DNA of 64,000 nt from Verrucomicrobiota bacterium. GTDB taxonomy: Bacteria; Verrucomicrobiota; Verrucomicrobiia; Limisphaerales; SIBE01. The position numbers were made by a program, and so were the translations under genes. Below, in pieces: positions 1,137-62,388 of the stretch; position 1 is the first letter of the stretch, and every line of letters begins with the position of its first letter. The stretch is from contig VHCZ01000002.1 in the NCBI GenBank assembly GCA_016871535.1, positions 6,180 through 70,179 of the forward strand, given 5' to 3'. The notes below the pieces were generated by a model, which did no database searches, was not told the origin of the DNA, and saw nothing but the letters and a program-made list of their open reading frames with translations.

Positions 1137-1404
1137 GTGGTCATGGACATAAATACGATGACGTTCGCGGCAAGGGATTTTGCGGCCAGACGAGGCGCGA
1201 GCGACGCGCATACCCCTCGGCGGTCTGCAAGGAGCGAGCCACGAAGTCTGGCTGCAAAAGACCTGCCGCCCTTCGGGTTTCGCCCCATTTGGCCTGTGGC
1301 TTCGTTGCGCCTCGGTCACAGAGCCGTGCGGCTATGCTCCCTCGTCGCGCCTGATACGCCAAATGGGGCGAAACGAACGTCATCGTATTTATGCCCATGA
1401 CCAC
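1137..1404. repeat. ~270-nt multi-helix palindromic interspersed element, copy A (candidate structured RNA)
   Basis: 31-nt terminal arms GTGGTCATGGACATAAATACGATGACGTTCG / CGAACGTCATCGTATTTATGCCCATGACCAC pair 30/31. Internal helices and conserved blocks are shared with 21220-21494 and 55685-55958. The mirror-image ORFs on both strands are artefacts of the palindrome. Confidence 0.85.
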
Positions 1405-1865: not shown

Positions 1866-2002
1866 ATCCTGGAAAACTTCCCGGTACGGTCACCCTGCTC
1901 CGCCCCATGAACCAGGCAGGGCAAGTCCATCCCGACGAGCCGCTCAACCACGTTGCGTGGAACACGTCCGACTCGGCTGGCTGGGGACAGGCTCGCCCTA
2001 CC
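1866..2002. repeat. hairpin repeat family 'GGTAGGGCGAG...CTCGCCCTACC', copy 1
   Basis: ...CCCATGAACC..GGCAGGGCAAGTCCATCCCGACGAGCCGCTC...GGAACACGTCCGACTCGGCTGGCTGGGGACAGGCTCGCCCTACC is homologous to 57111-57253. It lies between convergent genes. Confidence 0.7.
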
Positions 2003-7207: not shown

Positions 7208-7762
7208 ATGCGACTGACAAAACGTGGCGAATACGCACTTCGAGCGATGATCGACCTGGGCATGGCTCAGGAAACGGGCCGGCCCATGCTGCAGATCGCC
7301 GAAGTGGCCAACAAAGAGAATATCCCGATCAAATTCCTGGAAGCCATCCTGGTCGAATTGAAGGAAGCCGGATATCTGGACAGCAAGCGGGGCAAACACG
7401 GGGGCTATTTCCTGGCCAAACCGATGGATGCCATCCGCATCGGCGACGTCGTGAGAAAACTGGAAGGGCCCCTGGCGCCCATTGCCTGCGTCAGCCAGAA
7501 CTTCTACGAACGCTGTTCGTGTCCGGACGAGGCGCATTGCGGCTTGCGAATGCTGATGCTCGATGTGCGCAACGCCATCGCGAATATTCTGGATCGCTAC
7601 ACCCTCGCCCAGACGGTCCAGGTAGCCTTGCAGAAAATCCGGCGCGATGGATTGCCGGTCCCTTTCGCCAAACAGAACAGACCCAAGGACGCACGGCGCG
7701 ACGGATTCGCGCGCTCAGGAAAGAGCAAGCCCGGAAAGGATCGGGCAATCCGACGAGGTTAG
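7208..7762 (+). CDS. Rrf2 family transcriptional regulator (Cys-containing, possibly Fe-S binding)
   Basis: MRLTKRGEYALRAMIDLGMAQ...IPIKFLEAILVELKEAGYLDSKRGKHGGYFLA is the Rrf2 wHTH. Cys cluster CVSQNFYERCSCPDEAHC. Confidence 0.85.
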   Translation: MRLTKRGEYALRAMIDLGMAQETGRPMLQIAEVANKENIPIKFLEAILVELKEAGYLDSKRGKHGGYFLAKPMDAIRIGDVVRKLEGPLAPIACVSQNFYERCSCPDEAHCGLRMLMLDVRNAIANILDRYTLAQTVQVALQKIRRDGLPVPFAKQNRPKDARRDGFARSGKSKPGKDRAIRRG

Positions 7763-7764
7763 AC

Positions 7765-8865
7765 ATGTTAAATGAGTTAAATGGATTAAGAGGGTTGGCC
7801 TGGACAGCAAGCGTTTTGAGAGCCGGCTTCACGAAACTGCTCGGCATATTTGTAGGTCTCGGACTGACGGCAGCACAGACGGTCGAGGCAGAAAAGATCG
7901 TGGTTCGCGTAGGGCACTTCCCCAACTTGACTCACGCGCAGGCGGTGATTGCCCACGGGTTGTCGCGTCAAGGCAAGGGCTGGTTTGAACAGCGCTTAGG
8001 GCCCGGCATCGAAATTCAATGGTTTGTCTATAACGCAGGCCCGTCCGCGATGGAGGCGATCTTCACCAAGGCCATCGATCTCACCTACGTTGGCCCAAGC
8101 CCCGCGATCAACGCCCATCTCAAAGCGCGCGGGGAAGAAATCCGGATCGTGGCCGGAGCGTGCAGCGGCGGCGCGGCGCTCGTTGTCCAACCGGACGGAC
8201 GCATCAACGCCGACGAAGATTTCAAGGGAAAGAAAGTGGCGACGCCTCAGTTTGGCAACACGCAAGACGTCGCGGCACGCTCGTGGCTGCGATCCAGGGG
8301 GCATCGAGTCACCATGACCGGGGGCGACGTTTTGGTCGTCCCGACGTCCAACCCGGACCAGCTCGCGCTCTTCCAAAAAGGCGAGTTGGATGCGGTATGG
8401 ACGGTTGAACCCTGGGTGACCCGACTGATGCTTGAAGCCAAGGGCAAGGTCTATTTCGAGGAAAGCAAGCTTTGGCCGGAAACCAGGGGGCAATACGTCA
8501 CGACCCATTTGGTCAGCAGCGTGCGGTTTCTCAAGGAGCGGCCTGACCTTCTCAAAAAGTGGATCGCCGCGCACGTTGAACTGACGGATTGGATCAATCG
8601 GAATCCTGACGACGCCAAAAGGGCGCTTAACGAGGAAATCAAAGCGGAAACCACGCGCGCCCTCCCGCAGACCATACTCGACAGCGCGTGGAAGCGCCTG
8701 GAACTTACGCCGGATCCGATTCGTGCGTCGCTCTTAAAGTCCGCCGAAGACGCGCATCGAATCGGCTTCCTCCGCCAGAAACCCGACCTTTCGCGCATTT
8801 ACGAATTGAGGCTGCTGAACGAAGTGCTCAGAGAAAAAGGCCCGCAGCAGGAAGTGCTTCCATGA
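7765..8865 (+). CDS. ABC transporter substrate-binding protein, NitT/TauT (NMT1/SsuA-like) family
   Basis: KIVVRVGHFPNLTHAQAVIAHG...YNAGPSAMEAIFTKAIDLTYVGPSP is typical of SsuA/TauA-like SBPs. The start is uncertain: ATG 7765 lies inside the 9-mer repeat, while TTG 7816 gives the cleaner signal peptide MRAGFTKLLGIFVGLGLTAAQ. Confidence 0.85.
   Translation: MLNELNGLRGLAWTASVLRAGFTKLLGIFVGLGLTAAQTVEAEKIVVRVGHFPNLTHAQAVIAHGLSRQGKGWFEQRLGPGIEIQWFVYNAGPSAMEAIFTKAIDLTYVGPSPAINAHLKARGEEIRIVAGACSGGAALVVQPDGRINADEDFKGKKVATPQFGNTQDVAARSWLRSRGHRVTMTGGDVLVVPTSNPDQLALFQKGELDAVWTVEPWVTRLMLEAKGKVYFEESKLWPETRGQYVTTHLVSSVRFLKERPDLLKKWIAAHVELTDWINRNPDDAKRALNEEIKAETTRALPQTILDSAWKRLELTPDPIRASLLKSAEDAHRIGFLRQKPDLSRIYELRLLNEVLREKGPQQEVLP
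7767..7797 (+). repeat. 9-bp periodic GTTAAAT array, locus 1
   Basis: GTTAAATGA GTTAAATGG ATTAAGAGG GTTGG starts 5 nt after the Rrf2 stop (TAG 7760-7762). Confidence 0.6.
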
Positions 8866-21201: not shown

Positions 21202-21219
21202 GCCGCGTTTGTATGCCTT

Positions 21220-21494
21220 AGAGCGTGTCCGAAAATTGCGCGGGGTCCTGCGGCGAGGGATTTTGGCTGTGGCCAAGGCGGCGAGGTCCGAGCATCCCCA
21301 ACGCGGGCTGTAAGGACCGAGCCAACGCAGGCCACGGACAAAAGACCCGCCGCCCGGAGGGTTTTCGCGCCAAAGGCCGCCTGGCTTCGTTGCTCCTCAG
21401 TCGAAGATCCAGGGAGGATATTCTCCTTCGTCGCGCCTCGCCATCCGGCCTTTGGCGCGAAAACAGGACCCCGCGGAATTTTCGGACACGCTCT
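21220..21494. repeat. ~270-nt multi-helix palindromic interspersed element, copy C
   Basis: Arms AGAGCGTGTCCGAAAATTGCGCGGGGTCCTG / CAGGACCCCGCGGAATTTTCGGACACGCTCT pair 30/31. Internal 18-bp helix TTTTCGCGCCAAAGGCCG/CGGCCTTTGGCGCGAAAA. Core blocks are shared with copies A and B. Confidence 0.85.
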
Positions 21495-21543
21495 TAAATA
21501 AGTTGAATGGTTGAATGGTCAAATCAGTAGCCCAGTTCCAGTT

Positions 21544-21579
21544 CATTTCACCTATTTAACCCATTTAACTCGTTTAACC
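21544..21579 (-). repeat. 9-bp periodic GTTAAAT array, locus 2
   Basis: Plus strand reads CATTTCACC TATTTAACC CATTTAACT CGTTTAACC, which is GTTAAA-type on the minus strand. It lies 36 nt after the stop of the minus-strand dehydratase gene. An adjacent TTGAATGG x2 sits at 21503-21518. Confidence 0.6.
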
Positions 21580-21615
21580 GCTCTATACGCTGTAACGCTC
21601 CCACGCTCTCGCGAA

Positions 21616-55306: not shown

Positions 55307-55684
55307 ATGAAAACAACGCAGAGAAACACGGACCGCCAGCAACAGTTATCCGCCCGGTTCGCGCCGGAGGTGGAGTTTGAACTCTCACCCGTGCCCGGCG
55401 CGGTGCCTCCGGAAACCGTCCGGATCAAGTTCGACGAACTCCAGAGCCGCCTGGTGGAGGCCACGCTGGGCGAGTCGAACAGCCGGTTTATCCGCGGCCG
55501 AATTGATCAAGCCGCCCGCGAAGCCGCGGCGCTGGCCTGGACGACTCCCTACCCGTTGCTGGTCTTGCCGGAGCTATTTCTCGAAAAAGCGCGTGAGGCC
55601 GGCCAGCGGTTGGACAAGCAACGCCGCGTGCTCCAGCGAAGCGAGCGGTTGGTTGAAGCGATCCACAACTGGGATGCAGGCTAA
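55307..55684 (+). CDS. hypothetical protein (125 aa)
   Basis: Ungapped ORF with ATG start just after the terminator/attenuator. No recognisable motif. The TAA stop abuts element copy B. Confidence 0.5.
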   Translation: MKTTQRNTDRQQQLSARFAPEVEFELSPVPGAVPPETVRIKFDELQSRLVEATLGESNSRFIRGRIDQAAREAAALAWTTPYPLLVLPELFLEKAREAGQRLDKQRRVLQRSERLVEAIHNWDAG

Positions 55685-55958
55685 GTGGTCCATTTCATAA
55701 ATACGCTCACGTTCGCGGCAAGGGATTTTTCGGCCAGACGAGGCGCGAGCGACGAGCATATCCCGAAGTGGATCTGTAAGGAGCAAGCAACGAAGTCTGG
55801 CGAAAAAGAACTGCCGCCCTTCGGGTTGCGCCCAATTTTGCCTGGGGCTGCGTTGCTCCTCGGTCACAGCCCCACTGGCGGGGGATGCTCGCTCGTCGCG
55901 CCTTGCCCCAGGCCAAATTGGGCGCAACGAACGTGAGCGTATTTACGAAACGGACCAC
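55685..55958. repeat. ~270-nt multi-helix palindromic interspersed element, copy B
   Basis: Arms GTGGTCCATTTCATAAATACGCTCACGTTCG / CGAACGTGAGCGTATTTACGAAACGGACCAC. The interior is largely collinear with copy A (many shared blocks). It overlaps the last codons of the MetE-like gene. Confidence 0.85.
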
Positions 55959-56989
55959 TCTTCTTGTGCGTAGGCGGGCAAGCCGAGATACCGGTTTCGG
56001 CCCGCGACGAGAGCCCGCATCTTCCGGTCCGCGACGCTGCGTTTCAACATCCAGAAGCCGCAGTCCGGGTGCACGTACCGGACGCGGCCTTCCCCAAGAA
56101 TCTTCTCCGCTGTTTCAATCCGGCGCGCCACGGTATCCGCGCTCTCCACCACGGTGGATTTGATGTCGATGACGCCAAGCCCAATCCCAATCCGGGGATC
56201 CAGCTCTCGCAACGATTCAATCTCTTGGGGTTCGCGCCGCGCCATTTCGAGGACGACGTGATCGACGCGAAGCTGGTTCATGAATTGAATCAAGCGCTTC
56301 CAACTTCCCTGCTGGATCGTTTGGCCGCCGTAGTTACCGAAACACAGGTGCAACGCTTTCTCTCCGCGAATCGAATCGAACACGTGATTCAACGCCGGGA
56401 CGGCCCAGGCAGCGTCTTCAGGCGAACCGGTGATGTTCGCTTCATCCAGTTGAATCACGCCGGCGTCGATCTGAGCAATCTGCGCGGCTAGCACGCGCGC
56501 CAGCGCCAGGGCGAGTTCACCTGGACTCTTGAAATGCCGGTCCAACAAAGTCTTGCTCAGCATGTGCGGTCCCGTGACGGTGAATTTCATGCGCCGTCGC
56601 GTGAGCGCGCGCGCGCGCTGGAAATCGCTGACCAGGTCGAGCGGGCCGGGCGCGATCGGTCCTTCAACCACCGCGGCGGGCCGGCTTCGGAATTTCATCG
56701 CCGCGATTTTGGAAAACGCTTCGATGTCCTCCCGGCCAATCTGCGACCGAACGCCGCCCAGCGGACGCACAAAATACTCGATCATCCCGTTCGTGTCCGG
56801 ATGATTGATGTCGAAGCGATAAAGCTCGCCATCGGCCACCACGTCAATTCCCGCCAGTTCCTGGATCTTGAACACGACCGAAGTCGCATCAACGAGCGCC
56901 TGCTGGCTGGGAAGAGCGGCGAGCCAATCGGGGACCGGATAACTCCCGACGACCGTCGTCAGGATGCGAGGAGGAGCGCAGGCATTCAT
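55943..56989 (-). CDS. cobalamin-independent methionine synthase (MetE C-terminal domain)-like methyltransferase
   Basis: TTVVGSYPVPDWL...LHLCFGNYGGQ...YVHPDCGFWML are Zn-ligand-type motifs of the MetE/UROD-like family. Confidence 0.85.
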   Translation of the reverse strand: MNACAPPRILTTVVGSYPVPDWLAALPSQQALVDATSVVFKIQELAGIDVVADGELYRFDINHPDTNGMIEYFVRPLGGVRSQIGREDIEAFSKIAAMKFRSRPAAVVEGPIAPGPLDLVSDFQRARALTRRRMKFTVTGPHMLSKTLLDRHFKSPGELALALARVLAAQIAQIDAGVIQLDEANITGSPEDAAWAVPALNHVFDSIRGEKALHLCFGNYGGQTIQQGSWKRLIQFMNQLRVDHVVLEMARREPQEIESLRELDPRIGIGLGVIDIKSTVVESADTVARRIETAEKILGEGRVRYVHPDCGFWMLKRSVADRKMRALVAGRNRYLGLPAYAQEEWSVS

Positions 56990-57110: not shown

Positions 57111-57253
57111 GGTTCATGGGAAGCTCCCTCGGTTTCAAAACCTCGAACTCGGCCCATGAACCGGTCGCCGGTAGGGCGAGTCCGTCCCGGCGAGCCGCTC
57201 CACGCGCTTGGAACACGTCCGACTCCGCTCGCTGCGGACAGGCTCGCCCTACC
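57111..57253. repeat. hairpin repeat family 'GGTAGGGCGAG...CTCGCCCTACC', copy 2 (inside a composite repeat cluster about 57030-57330)
   Basis: GGTTCATGGG...CCCATGAACC hairpin, then GGTAGGGCGAGTCCGTCCCGGCGAGCCGCTC...GGAACACGTCCGACTCCGCT..GGACAGGCTCGCCCTACC. Another GGTTCATGGG at 57258. Confidence 0.7.
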
Positions 57254-61719: not shown

Positions 61720-61755
61720 CATTTTAACGATTTAACCTTTTAACTCATTTAACCC
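61720..61755 (-). repeat. 9-bp periodic GTTAAAT array, locus 4 (atpH-atpA spacer)
   Basis: Plus strand reads CATTTTAAC GATTTAACC TTTTAACTC ATTTAACCC, 13 nt after the atpH stop in transcript sense. An adjacent GTGTCGGA x2 sits at 61684-61699. Confidence 0.6.
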
Positions 61756-62161: not shown

Positions 62162-62196
62162 GCCTCGCTTCGCTCAAACGCTGCTGGTTTCGAGAA

Positions 62197-62344
62197 GGGG
62201 AGCGCACGCGCCTCGCGTGCAGTGGCCGGCGCCCTCGCCGTCCACACCTCTACGATAGAGAAGCTCGTCATTGCTGAACTCCCGACGCGGCCATTTCGGC
62301 CGGCGAGGCGCCGGTCGATACACGCGCGGGCGCGTGTGTTCCCC
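62197..62344. repeat. 150-nt palindromic repeat family 'GGGGAGCGCACGCGCC...', copy 2 (atpF-atpH spacer)
   Basis: GGGGAGCGCACGCGCCTCGCGTGCAGTGGCCGGCGCCCTCGCCG...GGCCGGCGAGGCGCCGGTCGATACACGCGCGGGCGCGTGTGTTCCCC. Same orientation and same conserved flank (GATT.TGAGTGCAT) as copy 1. Confidence 0.8.
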
Positions 62345-62388
62345 GATTCTGAGTGCATTCTCACGATTTACTTTGAAATATCAAATCT

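Follow-up and report, generated by a model that had tools for sequence, protein, structure and literature searches.

MITEs are usually seen as decayed transposons with freely drifting interiors. Among the short intergenic elements of bacteria, Correia (Neisseria), ERIC/IRU, RUP and BOX are bounded by inverted repeats, are flanked by TA-containing duplications and form long hairpins when transcribed; several of them have no known transposase. REP/BIME, ERIC, BOX and Correia elements have also been described as structures in host transcripts. The general features of bacterial palindromic MITEs have been summarised (PMC10969869). PIF/Harbinger and NuwaII elements insert at C|TNA|G targets with TWA duplications, and their DDE domain groups with that of bacterial IS5 (PMC4482050; PMC12730594). 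Duplications of 2 bp also occur in the IS5/PIF-Harbinger (PHIS) superfamily (PMC12730594). Here we describe three segments of a Verrucomicrobiota genome that are copies of a MITE, non-coding and not an RNA gene. In these and related elements compensatory change has preserved one irregular hairpin, on one strand only, through many replacements of the terminal inverted repeats (TIRs).

Three MITE copies and their insertion sites

The window, by which we mean the whole 64-kb stretch of DNA that was analysed, contains three copies of a segment of about 270 nt where the first-pass annotation had placed them. All are on the plus strand and, taken with G...C termini, have the positions given in Table 1. 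Motif scans and a covariance model detected no further copies within the 64 kb. The three copies have one very stable fold in common, in which every helix noted earlier is real: the fold energies of copies A, B and C are -158.6, -151.7 and -176.6 kcal/mol, with z-scores against shuffles of -10.4, -9.8 and -11.7. What had been described as a 31-bp outer helix corresponds to inverted repeats of 31-32 nt that are 94-97% complementary in the window copies. Copies A and B are 79% identical to each other and 54-56% identical to copy C, and for each of the three, copies in other genomes are closer (82-88%) than the other copies in the window. They belong to three different subfamilies (T1a, T1b and T2), and it is for this reason that their termini had looked unconserved. 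The earlier argument that the segments are not a MITE fails on this point since the termini are conserved inside each subfamily, the TIRs being 30-31 bp long, 94-100% complementary and common to the copies within a genome or subfamily.

Table 1. Positions of the three elements and their parts in the window (CM R1, covariance model of the hairpin module)
Feature	Position	Strand	Remarks
Copy A, complete double-module MITE, subfamily T1a, 268 nt	1137..1404	+	flanks AAA (1134-1136) / TAA (1405-1407), decayed 3-bp duplication
Copy A left TIR	1137..1167	+	GTGGTCATGGACATAAATACGATGACGTTCG; same TIR type in CAWELO and JACQWK MAGs
Copy A left-arm hairpin module and local stem (earlier 'helix 2' domain)	1177..1262	+	CM R1 81.6 bits, E 1e-19; outside the training alignment of CM R1
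Copy A dyad centre	1269..1277	.	CCC-TTC-GGG
Copy A right-arm hairpin module (earlier 'helix 3' and apical hairpin)	1277..1372	- (sense)	CM R1 62.1 bits on -, 9.8 on +; arm alignments
Copy A right TIR	1374..1404	-	
Copy C target-site duplication, left	21218..21220	.	TTA
Copy C, complete double-module MITE, subfamily T2, 273 nt	21221..21493	+	between convergent rnc and galactonate dehydratase genes
Copy C left TIR	21221..21250	+	GAGCGTGTCCGAAAATTGCGCGGGGTCCTG
Copy C left-arm hairpin module	21260..21346	+	CM R1 74.0 bits
Copy C right-arm hairpin module	21369..21454	-	CM R1 78.1 bits on -, 10.6 on +
Copy C right TIR	21464..21493	-	
Copy C target-site duplication, right	21494..21496	.	TTA
Copy B, complete double-module MITE, subfamily T1b, 274 nt	55685..55958	+	between convergent ORFs
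Copy B flanks			TAA (55682-55684, doubling as stop codon of the upstream ORF) / TCT (55959-55961), decayed duplication
Copy B left TIR	55685..55715	+	GTGGTCCATTTCATAAATACGCTCACGTTCG; identical TIR in metagenome locus L087
Copy B left-arm hairpin module	55725..55811	+	CM R1 76.9 bits
Copy B right-arm hairpin module	55832..55919	-	CM R1 75.6 bits on -, 9.8 on +
Copy B right TIR	55928..55958	-	supplies last four codons and stop of ORF 55943-56989(-)

Identical 3-nt flanks were found on both sides of 38 out of 92 elements, against 3.4 expected and a maximum of 9 in 500 flank permutations. With 17 TTA, 14 TAA, 2 TCA and 2 TGA, 35 of these 38 follow the pattern TNA. About 13 further elements have a TA inside CTAG, and some subfamilies duplicate TA. 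The insertion site is thus marked by a 3-bp TNA duplication, preferably as C|TNA|G, where a C is often found before and a G often after; DDE transposases of the IS5/PIF-Harbinger (PHIS) superfamily leave this mark on insertion. In the window the duplication is exact for copy C and decayed for copies A and B. Conserved termini, target-site duplications and a cognate transposase had been named beforehand as the marks of an ordinary MITE; the first two are present, and the third was sought and not found in the sequences searched. The window elements are also short (268-274 bp) and lack coding capacity, as MITEs do, and no Pfam family matched the ORFs of 83-90 aa that span the elements on both strands.

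The suggestion that the element is interspersed genome-wide held up in a genome scan, which identified it as a genome-wide repeat in Verrucomicrobiota and matched 12 MAGs, 11 of them labelled Verrucomicrobiota (one Limisphaerales) and 1 Methylomirabilota. Copies matching the pattern number at least 10 in CAWBHS, 7 in DATMLG and 5 each in CAZFVY and CAWELO, and the window has 3 per 64 kb. Copies within one genome are 92-99% identical, indicating recent bursts. Truncated and chimeric copies exist, and breaks in assemblies of the source organism fall within copy C. Two related MAGs (loci L180 and L181, located by way of the flanking dehydratase, which is 96% and 93% identical) have no module in the orthologous interval between rnc and the galactonate dehydratase gene, where copy C lies; their intergenic spacer is too diverged to give a base-exact empty-site junction.

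The hairpin module, its covariation and its strand

The element is dyad-symmetric and each arm consists of a TIR, a variable stem, a conserved irregular hairpin of ~55 nt and a second variable stem. The outer helix of the first-pass annotation is the pairing of TIR with TIR, and the two arm hairpins are what it had called 'helix 2' and 'helix 3' with the apical hairpin. The consensus of the hairpin module reads AGGCG(G)CGA, 7 nt, GCAU, a short variable stem-loop, (C/A)UGU(R)A, about 6 nt and GAG(C)CAACGAAG, with a conserved G·U pair and several tandem G·A mismatches inside it. The module runs 5' to 3' inward from the terminus in both arms, which places the two modules on opposite strands. The unpaired blocks that had been listed between the helices are indeed conserved but they are not independent of each other, being a single module seen from either strand: when reverse-complemented, GGCTKCGTTGCKCCTC and CTCNYTCGTCGCGCCT from the 3' half give the GAGGAGCAACGAAGCC- and AGGCGCGACGAG-type blocks of the 5' half. 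The conflicting strand signals reported for the whole element are genuine and have the same origin, since the module is oriented oppositely in the two arms. The module also caps single-module MITEs of ~165 nt (about 155-185), which have many unrelated TIR families and the same duplication. A metagenome scan with the module only gave more than 118 loci, many of them single-module MITEs of this size, and one locus was on a Myxococcota-like contig. Hairpin shape and core sequence are kept across many element families and in at least two bacterial phyla.

The helices had been proposed to covary and we confirmed this for 32 full copies, taken from the window and from about 11 Verrucomicrobiota MAGs. 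In the full element 58 of 88 pairs have changed on both sides, pairing is retained in 96.5% of cells as against 74.3% in shuffles, and the covariation score is 0.564 versus 0.160 (0/500 shuffles), with values of 0.05-0.11 when the partners are slid. The module, analysed in 109 non-redundant copies, gave a similar picture: 86.1% of cells are paired versus 61.1% in shuffles, and the covariation score is 0.553 versus 0.152 (0/500 shuffles), or 0.07-0.19 with partners slid. One module position is a G·U pair in 92 of the 109 copies, an extra G in one strand is matched by an extra C in the other, and inner pairs covary while the adjacent G·A positions stay fixed. A simple rod-like palindrome was considered and dropped; what covaries are the local hairpins of the arms.

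The module is also specific to one strand. With the covariance model the sense strand reaches 62-82 bits and the antisense strand about 10 bits. In single-module elements the sense strand is the more stable one in 34 of 35 cases with RNA parameters and in 33 of 35 with DNA parameters, and this advantage persists when the module is swapped for GAAA (G·U pairs 88 vs 36, p about 6e-7). The local stems of double elements show no strand bias (G·U pairs 22 vs 14; arms more stable 19 vs 20). Two features are looked for in a generic structured single-stranded motif, strand specificity and covariation that exceeds both shuffled and slid controls, and both are observed. Conserved pairing of this kind had been taken as the signature of selection on a fold. 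This stands for the inner hairpins, whose fold is conserved by compensatory changes; covariation of the outer helix needs no RNA and is expected from two ends that are bound by one transposase. Such binding does not explain why the inner hairpins covary, and their covariation does indicate that a folded single strand, be it RNA or ssDNA, is under selection.

We considered whether the complementarity could instead be an unselected by-product, where elements are born by fold-back, their arms are kept matched by template switching or mismatch correction, and the module is constrained as a protein-binding site in duplex DNA. The stems of double elements are near-perfect with few G·U pairs and without strand bias, and many pair changes are G-C to C-G swaps that have no stable intermediate, all of which would suit such an origin. 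However, module pairs covary next to fixed G·A positions, the G·U pair is kept, and the insertion of a base pair is compensated on the other strand. A drive towards perfect palindromes should moreover have removed the irregular loops, and duplex DNA offers no explanation for the advantage of the sense strand in 34 of 35 elements. We regard this origin as improbable.

The first-pass annotation had read the segments as a free-standing family of structured ncRNA (or ssDNA) genes of ~270 nt rather than a transposon. Strong compensatory variation in every helix, extreme stability and conserved internal loops agree with this reading, and its absence from Rfam would make the family new. The first-pass annotation had recognised no known RNA family in the segments, and this was upheld, as Rfam gave no match even at permissive E-values: none in the window at gathering thresholds, none for the copies at E up to 10 and none for eleven single-module loci at E up to 1, apart from sub-threshold matches of miRNA type that are due to chance only. 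Retron ncRNA, integron attC sites, group II intron fragments and known ribozymes were considered and dropped, and a literature search by sequence strings and by topic found no description of the module. Against an RNA gene, the copies are flanked by TNA or TA duplications, have termini conserved by subfamily and occur as near-identical copies inside genomes, as truncated and chimeric copies and at assembly breaks. The 270-nt fold is one hairpin present twice on opposite strands, so that no single transcript carries both in a functional sense. There is no promoter or terminator, and the single-module versions have unrelated termini. The duplications, together with the dyad symmetry, already refute an ncRNA gene family to a large extent, and we hold it to be very improbable.

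Proposed transposition in trans and a possible role of the hairpin

No autonomous partner was found in the window or in 1.1 Mb of fetched loci. A scan of six-frame translations for DDE motifs yielded no parent element, and neither did a generic search for inverted repeats with TNA flanks and a spacing of 0.7-2 kb. TIR seeds compared with all loci gave as sole extra match a solo T2-like end beside a non-transposase gene (L152), and no T1 TIR lacking the MITE junction turned up when a metagenome was scanned for it. BLAST searches of plasmids with a TIR and with the module yielded nothing relevant, matches in viral contigs were by chance only, and among the loci searched the module was never inside a full-length IS. 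Truncated copies at two loci (L026 and L042) were considered as full-length elements and rejected, their neighbouring ORFs looking unrelated to the element.

The explanation that we favour, and consider likely, is a MITE with a two-arm hairpin dyad that is moved in trans by a PHIS transposase and whose module is cis-acting. A DDE transposase of the IS5/PIF-Harbinger superfamily, encoded elsewhere in the genome, would move the element, and the hairpin would work as a folded single strand in the element's own propagation. We infer such a role because the module has outlived repeated TIR turnover, is found in selfish copies scattered over intergenic sites of every kind and is favoured on one strand only. 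One form of this may be that the hairpin is extruded from DNA, where it could draw the two ends of a very short element together and offer a recognition surface. Another may be that it acts within a transcript. To our knowledge DDE transposases do not require folded single strands, and we know of no precedent for a hairpin role in the PHIS superfamily. We do not think that the module is a host RNA gene. It is possible, and we offer this as a tentative idea, that the GA-rich hairpin of ~55-85 nt is itself the selected unit, an undescribed cross-phylum motif that acts as folded ssDNA or RNA, either as a cis structure for DDE/PHIS mobility or as a protein-binding RNA that hitch-hikes on MITEs. 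In either case, if this were true, the mobility or persistence of a whole superfamily of bacterial MITEs would be controlled by shape in addition to end sequence.

Alternatively the hairpins could serve host transcripts. Read-through RNA would form a compact fold that resists nucleases and that either stabilises or insulates the 3' ends of adjacent genes or simply makes the insertion harmless, in the manner described for REP/BIME, ERIC, BOX and Correia elements. With the double form, transcripts from both sides would be served. Stable stem-loops in the transcripts of MITEs are a recognised theme, in support of this possibility (PMC10969869). Copies B and C are located at convergent sites, abutting or near stop codons. 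Single-module elements lie between convergent genes in 12 of 26 cases and between divergent genes in 2, against a background of about 19% for each class (heuristic gene calls), which would fit a role at mRNA 3' ends. The modules read inward, the direction of incoming transcription, and G·U pairs are in excess on the sense strand. However, single-module elements in tandem gene contexts are sense in 6 cases and antisense in 6 by the same heuristic, imperfect gene calls, and double elements are not enriched at convergent sites, with 9 convergent, 11 divergent and 24 tandem locations that are close to background (again heuristic calls). Promoter and terminator scans revealed neither kind of signal in the elements, and the strand asymmetry is as strong under DNA parameters. 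A benefit to the host at dozens of scattered copies would also be a weak keeper of a cross-phylum consensus. On balance a service to host transcripts appears rather unlikely to us.

If the hairpin were required for movement, a transposase superfamily considered to read duplex ends only would gain a form of recognition that depends on structure, and this would suggest how elements shorter than the persistence length of DNA bring their ends together. If the hairpin were to act in RNA, a widespread motif would be missing from Rfam. On a practical level, the family breaks assemblies, creates spurious ORFs of ~87 aa on both strands and rewrites the 3' ends of genes, as copy B does.

Comparison with known systems

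Like the structured RNAs of Rfam, the elements conserve a secondary structure and its internal loops while their paired bases undergo compensatory changes, but no Rfam family matches either the double or the single form. REP/REPIN (RAYT) repeats and palindromes derived from IS200/IS605 are likewise interspersed hairpin repeats in which the structure is recognised on a single strand, and REPINs are doublets of inverted hairpin units similar to the double elements described here. The hairpins of our elements could then be recognition structures for single-strand movement by an HUH (Y1) enzyme, as in IS200/IS605-derived palindromes or RAYT-mobilised REPINs. Their conserved shape and strand specificity are what such movement would predict, and a DDE partner was not found in the sequences searched. 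HUH-dependent systems, however, have no target duplication or long terminal inverted repeats and carry both hairpins on the same strand, whereas here the two sides of the duplication share whichever middle base is present (TAA, TTA, TCA or TGA), TIRs of 30 bp occur and the modules are on opposite strands. The termini also lack a GTAG-type head. We give this mode of movement hardly any credence.

The elements resemble Tourist-like MITEs and the PHIS superfamily in their 3-bp TWA/TNA duplication at C|TNA|G, in TIRs that start with G, in being small, non-coding and of high copy number, and, for some subfamilies, in a 2-bp TA duplication. They differ in their bacterial host, in the length of their TIRs (30-31 bp), in that no transposase was found in the sequences searched, and in a conserved hairpin core that is common to families with unrelated TIRs. 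Such a shared core is not known to have been described for Tourist elements or IS5-derived MITEs, and the literature searched contained no description of one. Correia, ERIC/IRU, RUP and BOX are comparable as short intergenic palindromic elements with inverted repeats and TA-containing duplications. No sequence relation to the present elements was seen, and each of those families is confined to a narrow host group and one TIR type, whereas here a GA-rich irregular hairpin extends across TIR types and phyla and also occurs as a two-module dyad.

Dyad-symmetric copies in the window

The first-pass annotation had described three segments of about 270 nt, and all are present as described, each on the plus strand (see table). 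Their outer inverted repeats measure 31-32 nt with 94-97% complementarity, and folding of each copy compared with dinucleotide shuffles gave z scores of -9.8 to -11.7. Motif scans of the window returned copies A, B and C with no extra copies, and a covariance model run over the window with filters off matched only their six hairpin modules (the module being a conserved hairpin of about 55 nt rich in G·A mismatches).

Alignment showed that the element is dyad-symmetric: its left half aligns along the full length with the right half once the latter is reverse-complemented. Each arm runs from the terminal inverted repeat (TIR) through a variable stem into the conserved irregular hairpin and back along the second strand of that stem, and the arms meet at a CCC-NNN-GGG junction. 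The sequence blocks reported as conserved between the helices are therefore real but not separate, those of the 3' half being reverse complements of those of the 5' half.

The genes flanking the copies are ordinary (ACT-domain protein, RNase III, galactonate dehydratase, MetE-like protein). At copy B part of the right TIR (55943-55958) doubles as the end of the MetE-like ORF 55943-56989(-), encoding its final four codons and stop (..W S V S *), and the TAA stop (55682-55684) of the upstream ORF 55307-55684(+) abuts the left TIR, so that insertion remodelled both gene 3' ends. Six independent assemblies of the window organism (L174-L179, JGI and ENA samples) stop inside copy C, 216-258 nt beyond the dehydratase stop codon, as is typical of repeat-induced breaks. 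The rnc-dehydratase interval of two related MAGs contains no module, and its spacer is too diverged for a base-exact empty site; in the related MAG JACQWK (L181, 1700-1800) the interval orthologous to the copy C site carries a different small palindrome, GTAGTCCCGCCTTTAGGCGGACCGACTAAAGCCGGGACTAC.

Other repeats were seen in the window. The two repeats of ~80-110 nt share 92% identity over 48 nt and have palindromic GGTAGGGCGAG...CTCGCCCTACC ends, with a REP-like look and a GTAG-type head. The long CCG/CCA-rich imperfect runs would code for a Gly-rich repetitive protein stretch.

Repeat features of the window and TIR types
Feature	Position	Strand	Remark
Copy A (T1a)	1137-1404	+	G...C termini
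Copy B (T1b)	55685-55958	+	G...C termini
Copy C (T2)	21221-21493	+	G...C termini
TIR type T1			GTGGTCATGAACATAAATACGATGACGTTCG
TIR type T2			GAGCCTGTCTGAAAATTGCGAGGGGTCCTG
TIR type T3			GTGTAGTGTCTCATAAATAACTGGTCATTCG
Unrelated MITE-like element, 194 nt	52415-52608		TIRs GCCGTATCTATTCAG... and ...GCATAGATACGC
Degraded relative of 194-nt element	~62190-62350
~80-110-nt repeat	~1920-2002		0.5 kb right of copy A
~80-110-nt repeat	57175-57253		1.2 kb right of copy B
AT-rich short intergenic repeats	7760-7789, 21556-21585, 61731-61753		like 'GTTAAATGAGTTAAATGG'; one just past copy C
CCG/CCA-rich runs	42456-43666		within large ORF 41915-44956(-)

A conserved, covarying and strand-specific hairpin module

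Taken 5' to 3' from each terminus towards the centre of the element, the hairpin comprises AGGCG(G)CGA, 7 nt, GCAU, a stem of 3-6 bp capped by a variable loop, (C/A)UGU(R)A, some 6 nt and GAG(C)CAACGAAG. When paired it forms a rod of covarying Watson-Crick pairs interspersed with tandem G·A/A·G mismatches that stay fixed; a single G·U is conserved (at its position in 92 of 109 module copies), and in T2 left arms an additional G on one strand is met by an additional C on the other. Covariation was scored on 32 full double copies and on 109 non-redundant modules with a hand-drawn 27-pair structure. Paired cells amounted to 96.5% in the double element (74.3% shuffled) and 86.1% in the module (61.1% shuffled), and both sides had changed in 58 of 88 and 22 of 27 pairs, respectively. 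The helices that had been reported to covary do so, with scores of 0.564 versus 0.160 shuffled for the double element and 0.553 versus 0.152 for the module (0/500 each), and 0.05-0.11 and 0.07-0.19 when partners were slid. The TIR helix would covary even without folding, since one transposase binding both ends makes the ends change together; covariation within the arms does require folding and has no explanation in duplex DNA.

For each module the covariance model gave 62-82 bits on one strand against about 10 on its complement; in the window the three left modules are on the plus strand and the three right modules on the minus strand. In elements with a single module the module-sense strand was more stable in 34 of 35 non-redundant cases, and this advantage persisted when the module was swapped for GAAA (G·U pairs 88 versus 36, mean difference -9.8 kcal/mol, Wilcoxon p about 6e-7). 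With DNA parameters the sense strand was more stable in 33 of 35, so the asymmetry has no power to separate RNA from ssDNA. Local stems of double elements had no strand bias. Together these data show a conserved, covarying and strand-specific hairpin.

A metagenome scan with the module pattern only (no TIR) found at least 118 loci. Among the matches listed were additional double elements whose TIR types were new and many single-module elements of ~155-185 nt, ordered TIR, stem, module, stem, TIR, whose TIRs are mutually unrelated in sequence (GGGCCTGCGAATGG..., GCGTCCGGCGGGGAATAAACTG..., GTACAGGGCCCCGCAAATGAG... and others). One single-module contig encodes an RpoD that, among named relatives, is nearest at ~50% identity to those of Polyangiales and other Myxococcota; the module therefore crosses phyla, and it was shown to occur in at least two of them and with many families of TIR. 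Neither form matched Rfam, in agreement with the earlier remark that no known RNA family was recognised; plasmids and viral contigs gave nothing above chance for either form, and a literature search by conserved sequence strings found no paper.

Termini, subfamilies and target sites

Species-representative genomes, scanned once with an exact pattern, yielded 51 loci, of which about 40 are true copies and the remainder chance matches in other phyla. The true copies are spread over 12 MAGs, 11 labelled Verrucomicrobiota, the relatives in which a search had been proposed, and one Methylomirabilota. When ends were aligned the outer helix proved to be a TIR conserved per genome or subfamily, with 92-99% identity between same-subfamily copies of one genome. 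Copies A, B and C belong to three subfamilies, and each resembles copies from other genomes more than it resembles its window neighbours, which is why their termini appeared unconserved yet perfectly compensated in the window alone. One locus (L114, 2430-2730) is a chimera of a T1 left arm fused to a T3-type right end via an internal deletion and another (L152, ~4210) has a solo T2-like terminus adjoining a T1 element, showing that subfamilies coexist and recombine within one genome. Truncated copies inspected were merely truncated or chimeric.

The elements are flanked by direct repeats whose middle base depends on the site (CTTAG...CTTAG, C-TCA-G, TGA/TGA; TTA/TTA at copy C). Identical 3-nt flanks were found in 38 of 92 elements with defined ends, against a mean of 3.4 and a maximum of 9 in 500 left/right permutations, and 35 of the 38 were TNA (17 TTA, 14 TAA, 2 TCA, 2 TGA). 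Single-module elements have the TNA duplication too, and about 13 more elements, T3-like, have CTA|G...C|TAG, i.e. a TA duplication inside CTAG. The first-pass annotation had set the element apart from a classical MITE for want of conserved termini, a distinction that falls with the conserved TIRs and target-site duplications. The cognate transposase was sought: neither the window nor 1.1 Mb of fetched loci held a full-length partner with matching ends or an IS5-like transposase, and one metagenome scan for the T1 TIR without the MITE junction gave no full-length element.

The 194-nt element is flanked on both sides by TAA within CTAAG (52412-52414, 52609-52611) and thus has the insertion signature of the MITE studied here; the GA-rich module is absent (covariance model score at noise). 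The common signature suggests that one transposase type may serve several non-autonomous families.

Role of the hairpin and kinship of the element

In the main rival explanation the hairpins would work at the 3' ends of genes, as part of read-through RNA. It is supported by single-module elements, which are in excess at convergent sites (12 convergent, 6 tandem-sense, 6 tandem-antisense, 2 divergent). Double elements sit regardless of transcription context (24 tandem, 9 convergent, 11 divergent, near background). The evidence from gene context is mixed, and both counts are heuristic, from imperfect gene calls. Scans of the window copies gave no sigma-70-like promoters and no intrinsic terminators. 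The element is probably mobilised in trans by an IS5-superfamily DDE transposase. For the hairpin we favour a role, as a folded single strand, in the propagation of the element itself, because of the placement of double elements, because the consensus of selfish scattered copies mainly keeps what proliferation needs and because the module outlived repeated TIR changes. We speculate that hairpin extrusion would bring together the two ends of an element whose length is below or close to the persistence length of DNA, and that a double element would offer one sense module on either strand and so would work in any orientation.

The proposed RNA fold family thus rested on a pattern that is real and above chance, yet it is no new RNA gene family but a structured MITE, a known element type in an undescribed structured variant. 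The finding would gain weight if the hairpin proved necessary for mobilisation or proved to be a functional RNA.

PIF/Harbinger and NuwaII elements combine a TWA duplication with an extended C|TNA|G target, the DDE domain they carry clusters with that of bacterial IS5, and relatives with 2-bp duplications are known (PMC4482050; PMC12730594). The elements studied here resemble them in the TNA duplication and its C|TNA|G context, and this match to the published signature shows a MITE with an insertion signature of the PIF/Harbinger-IS5 (PHIS) type.
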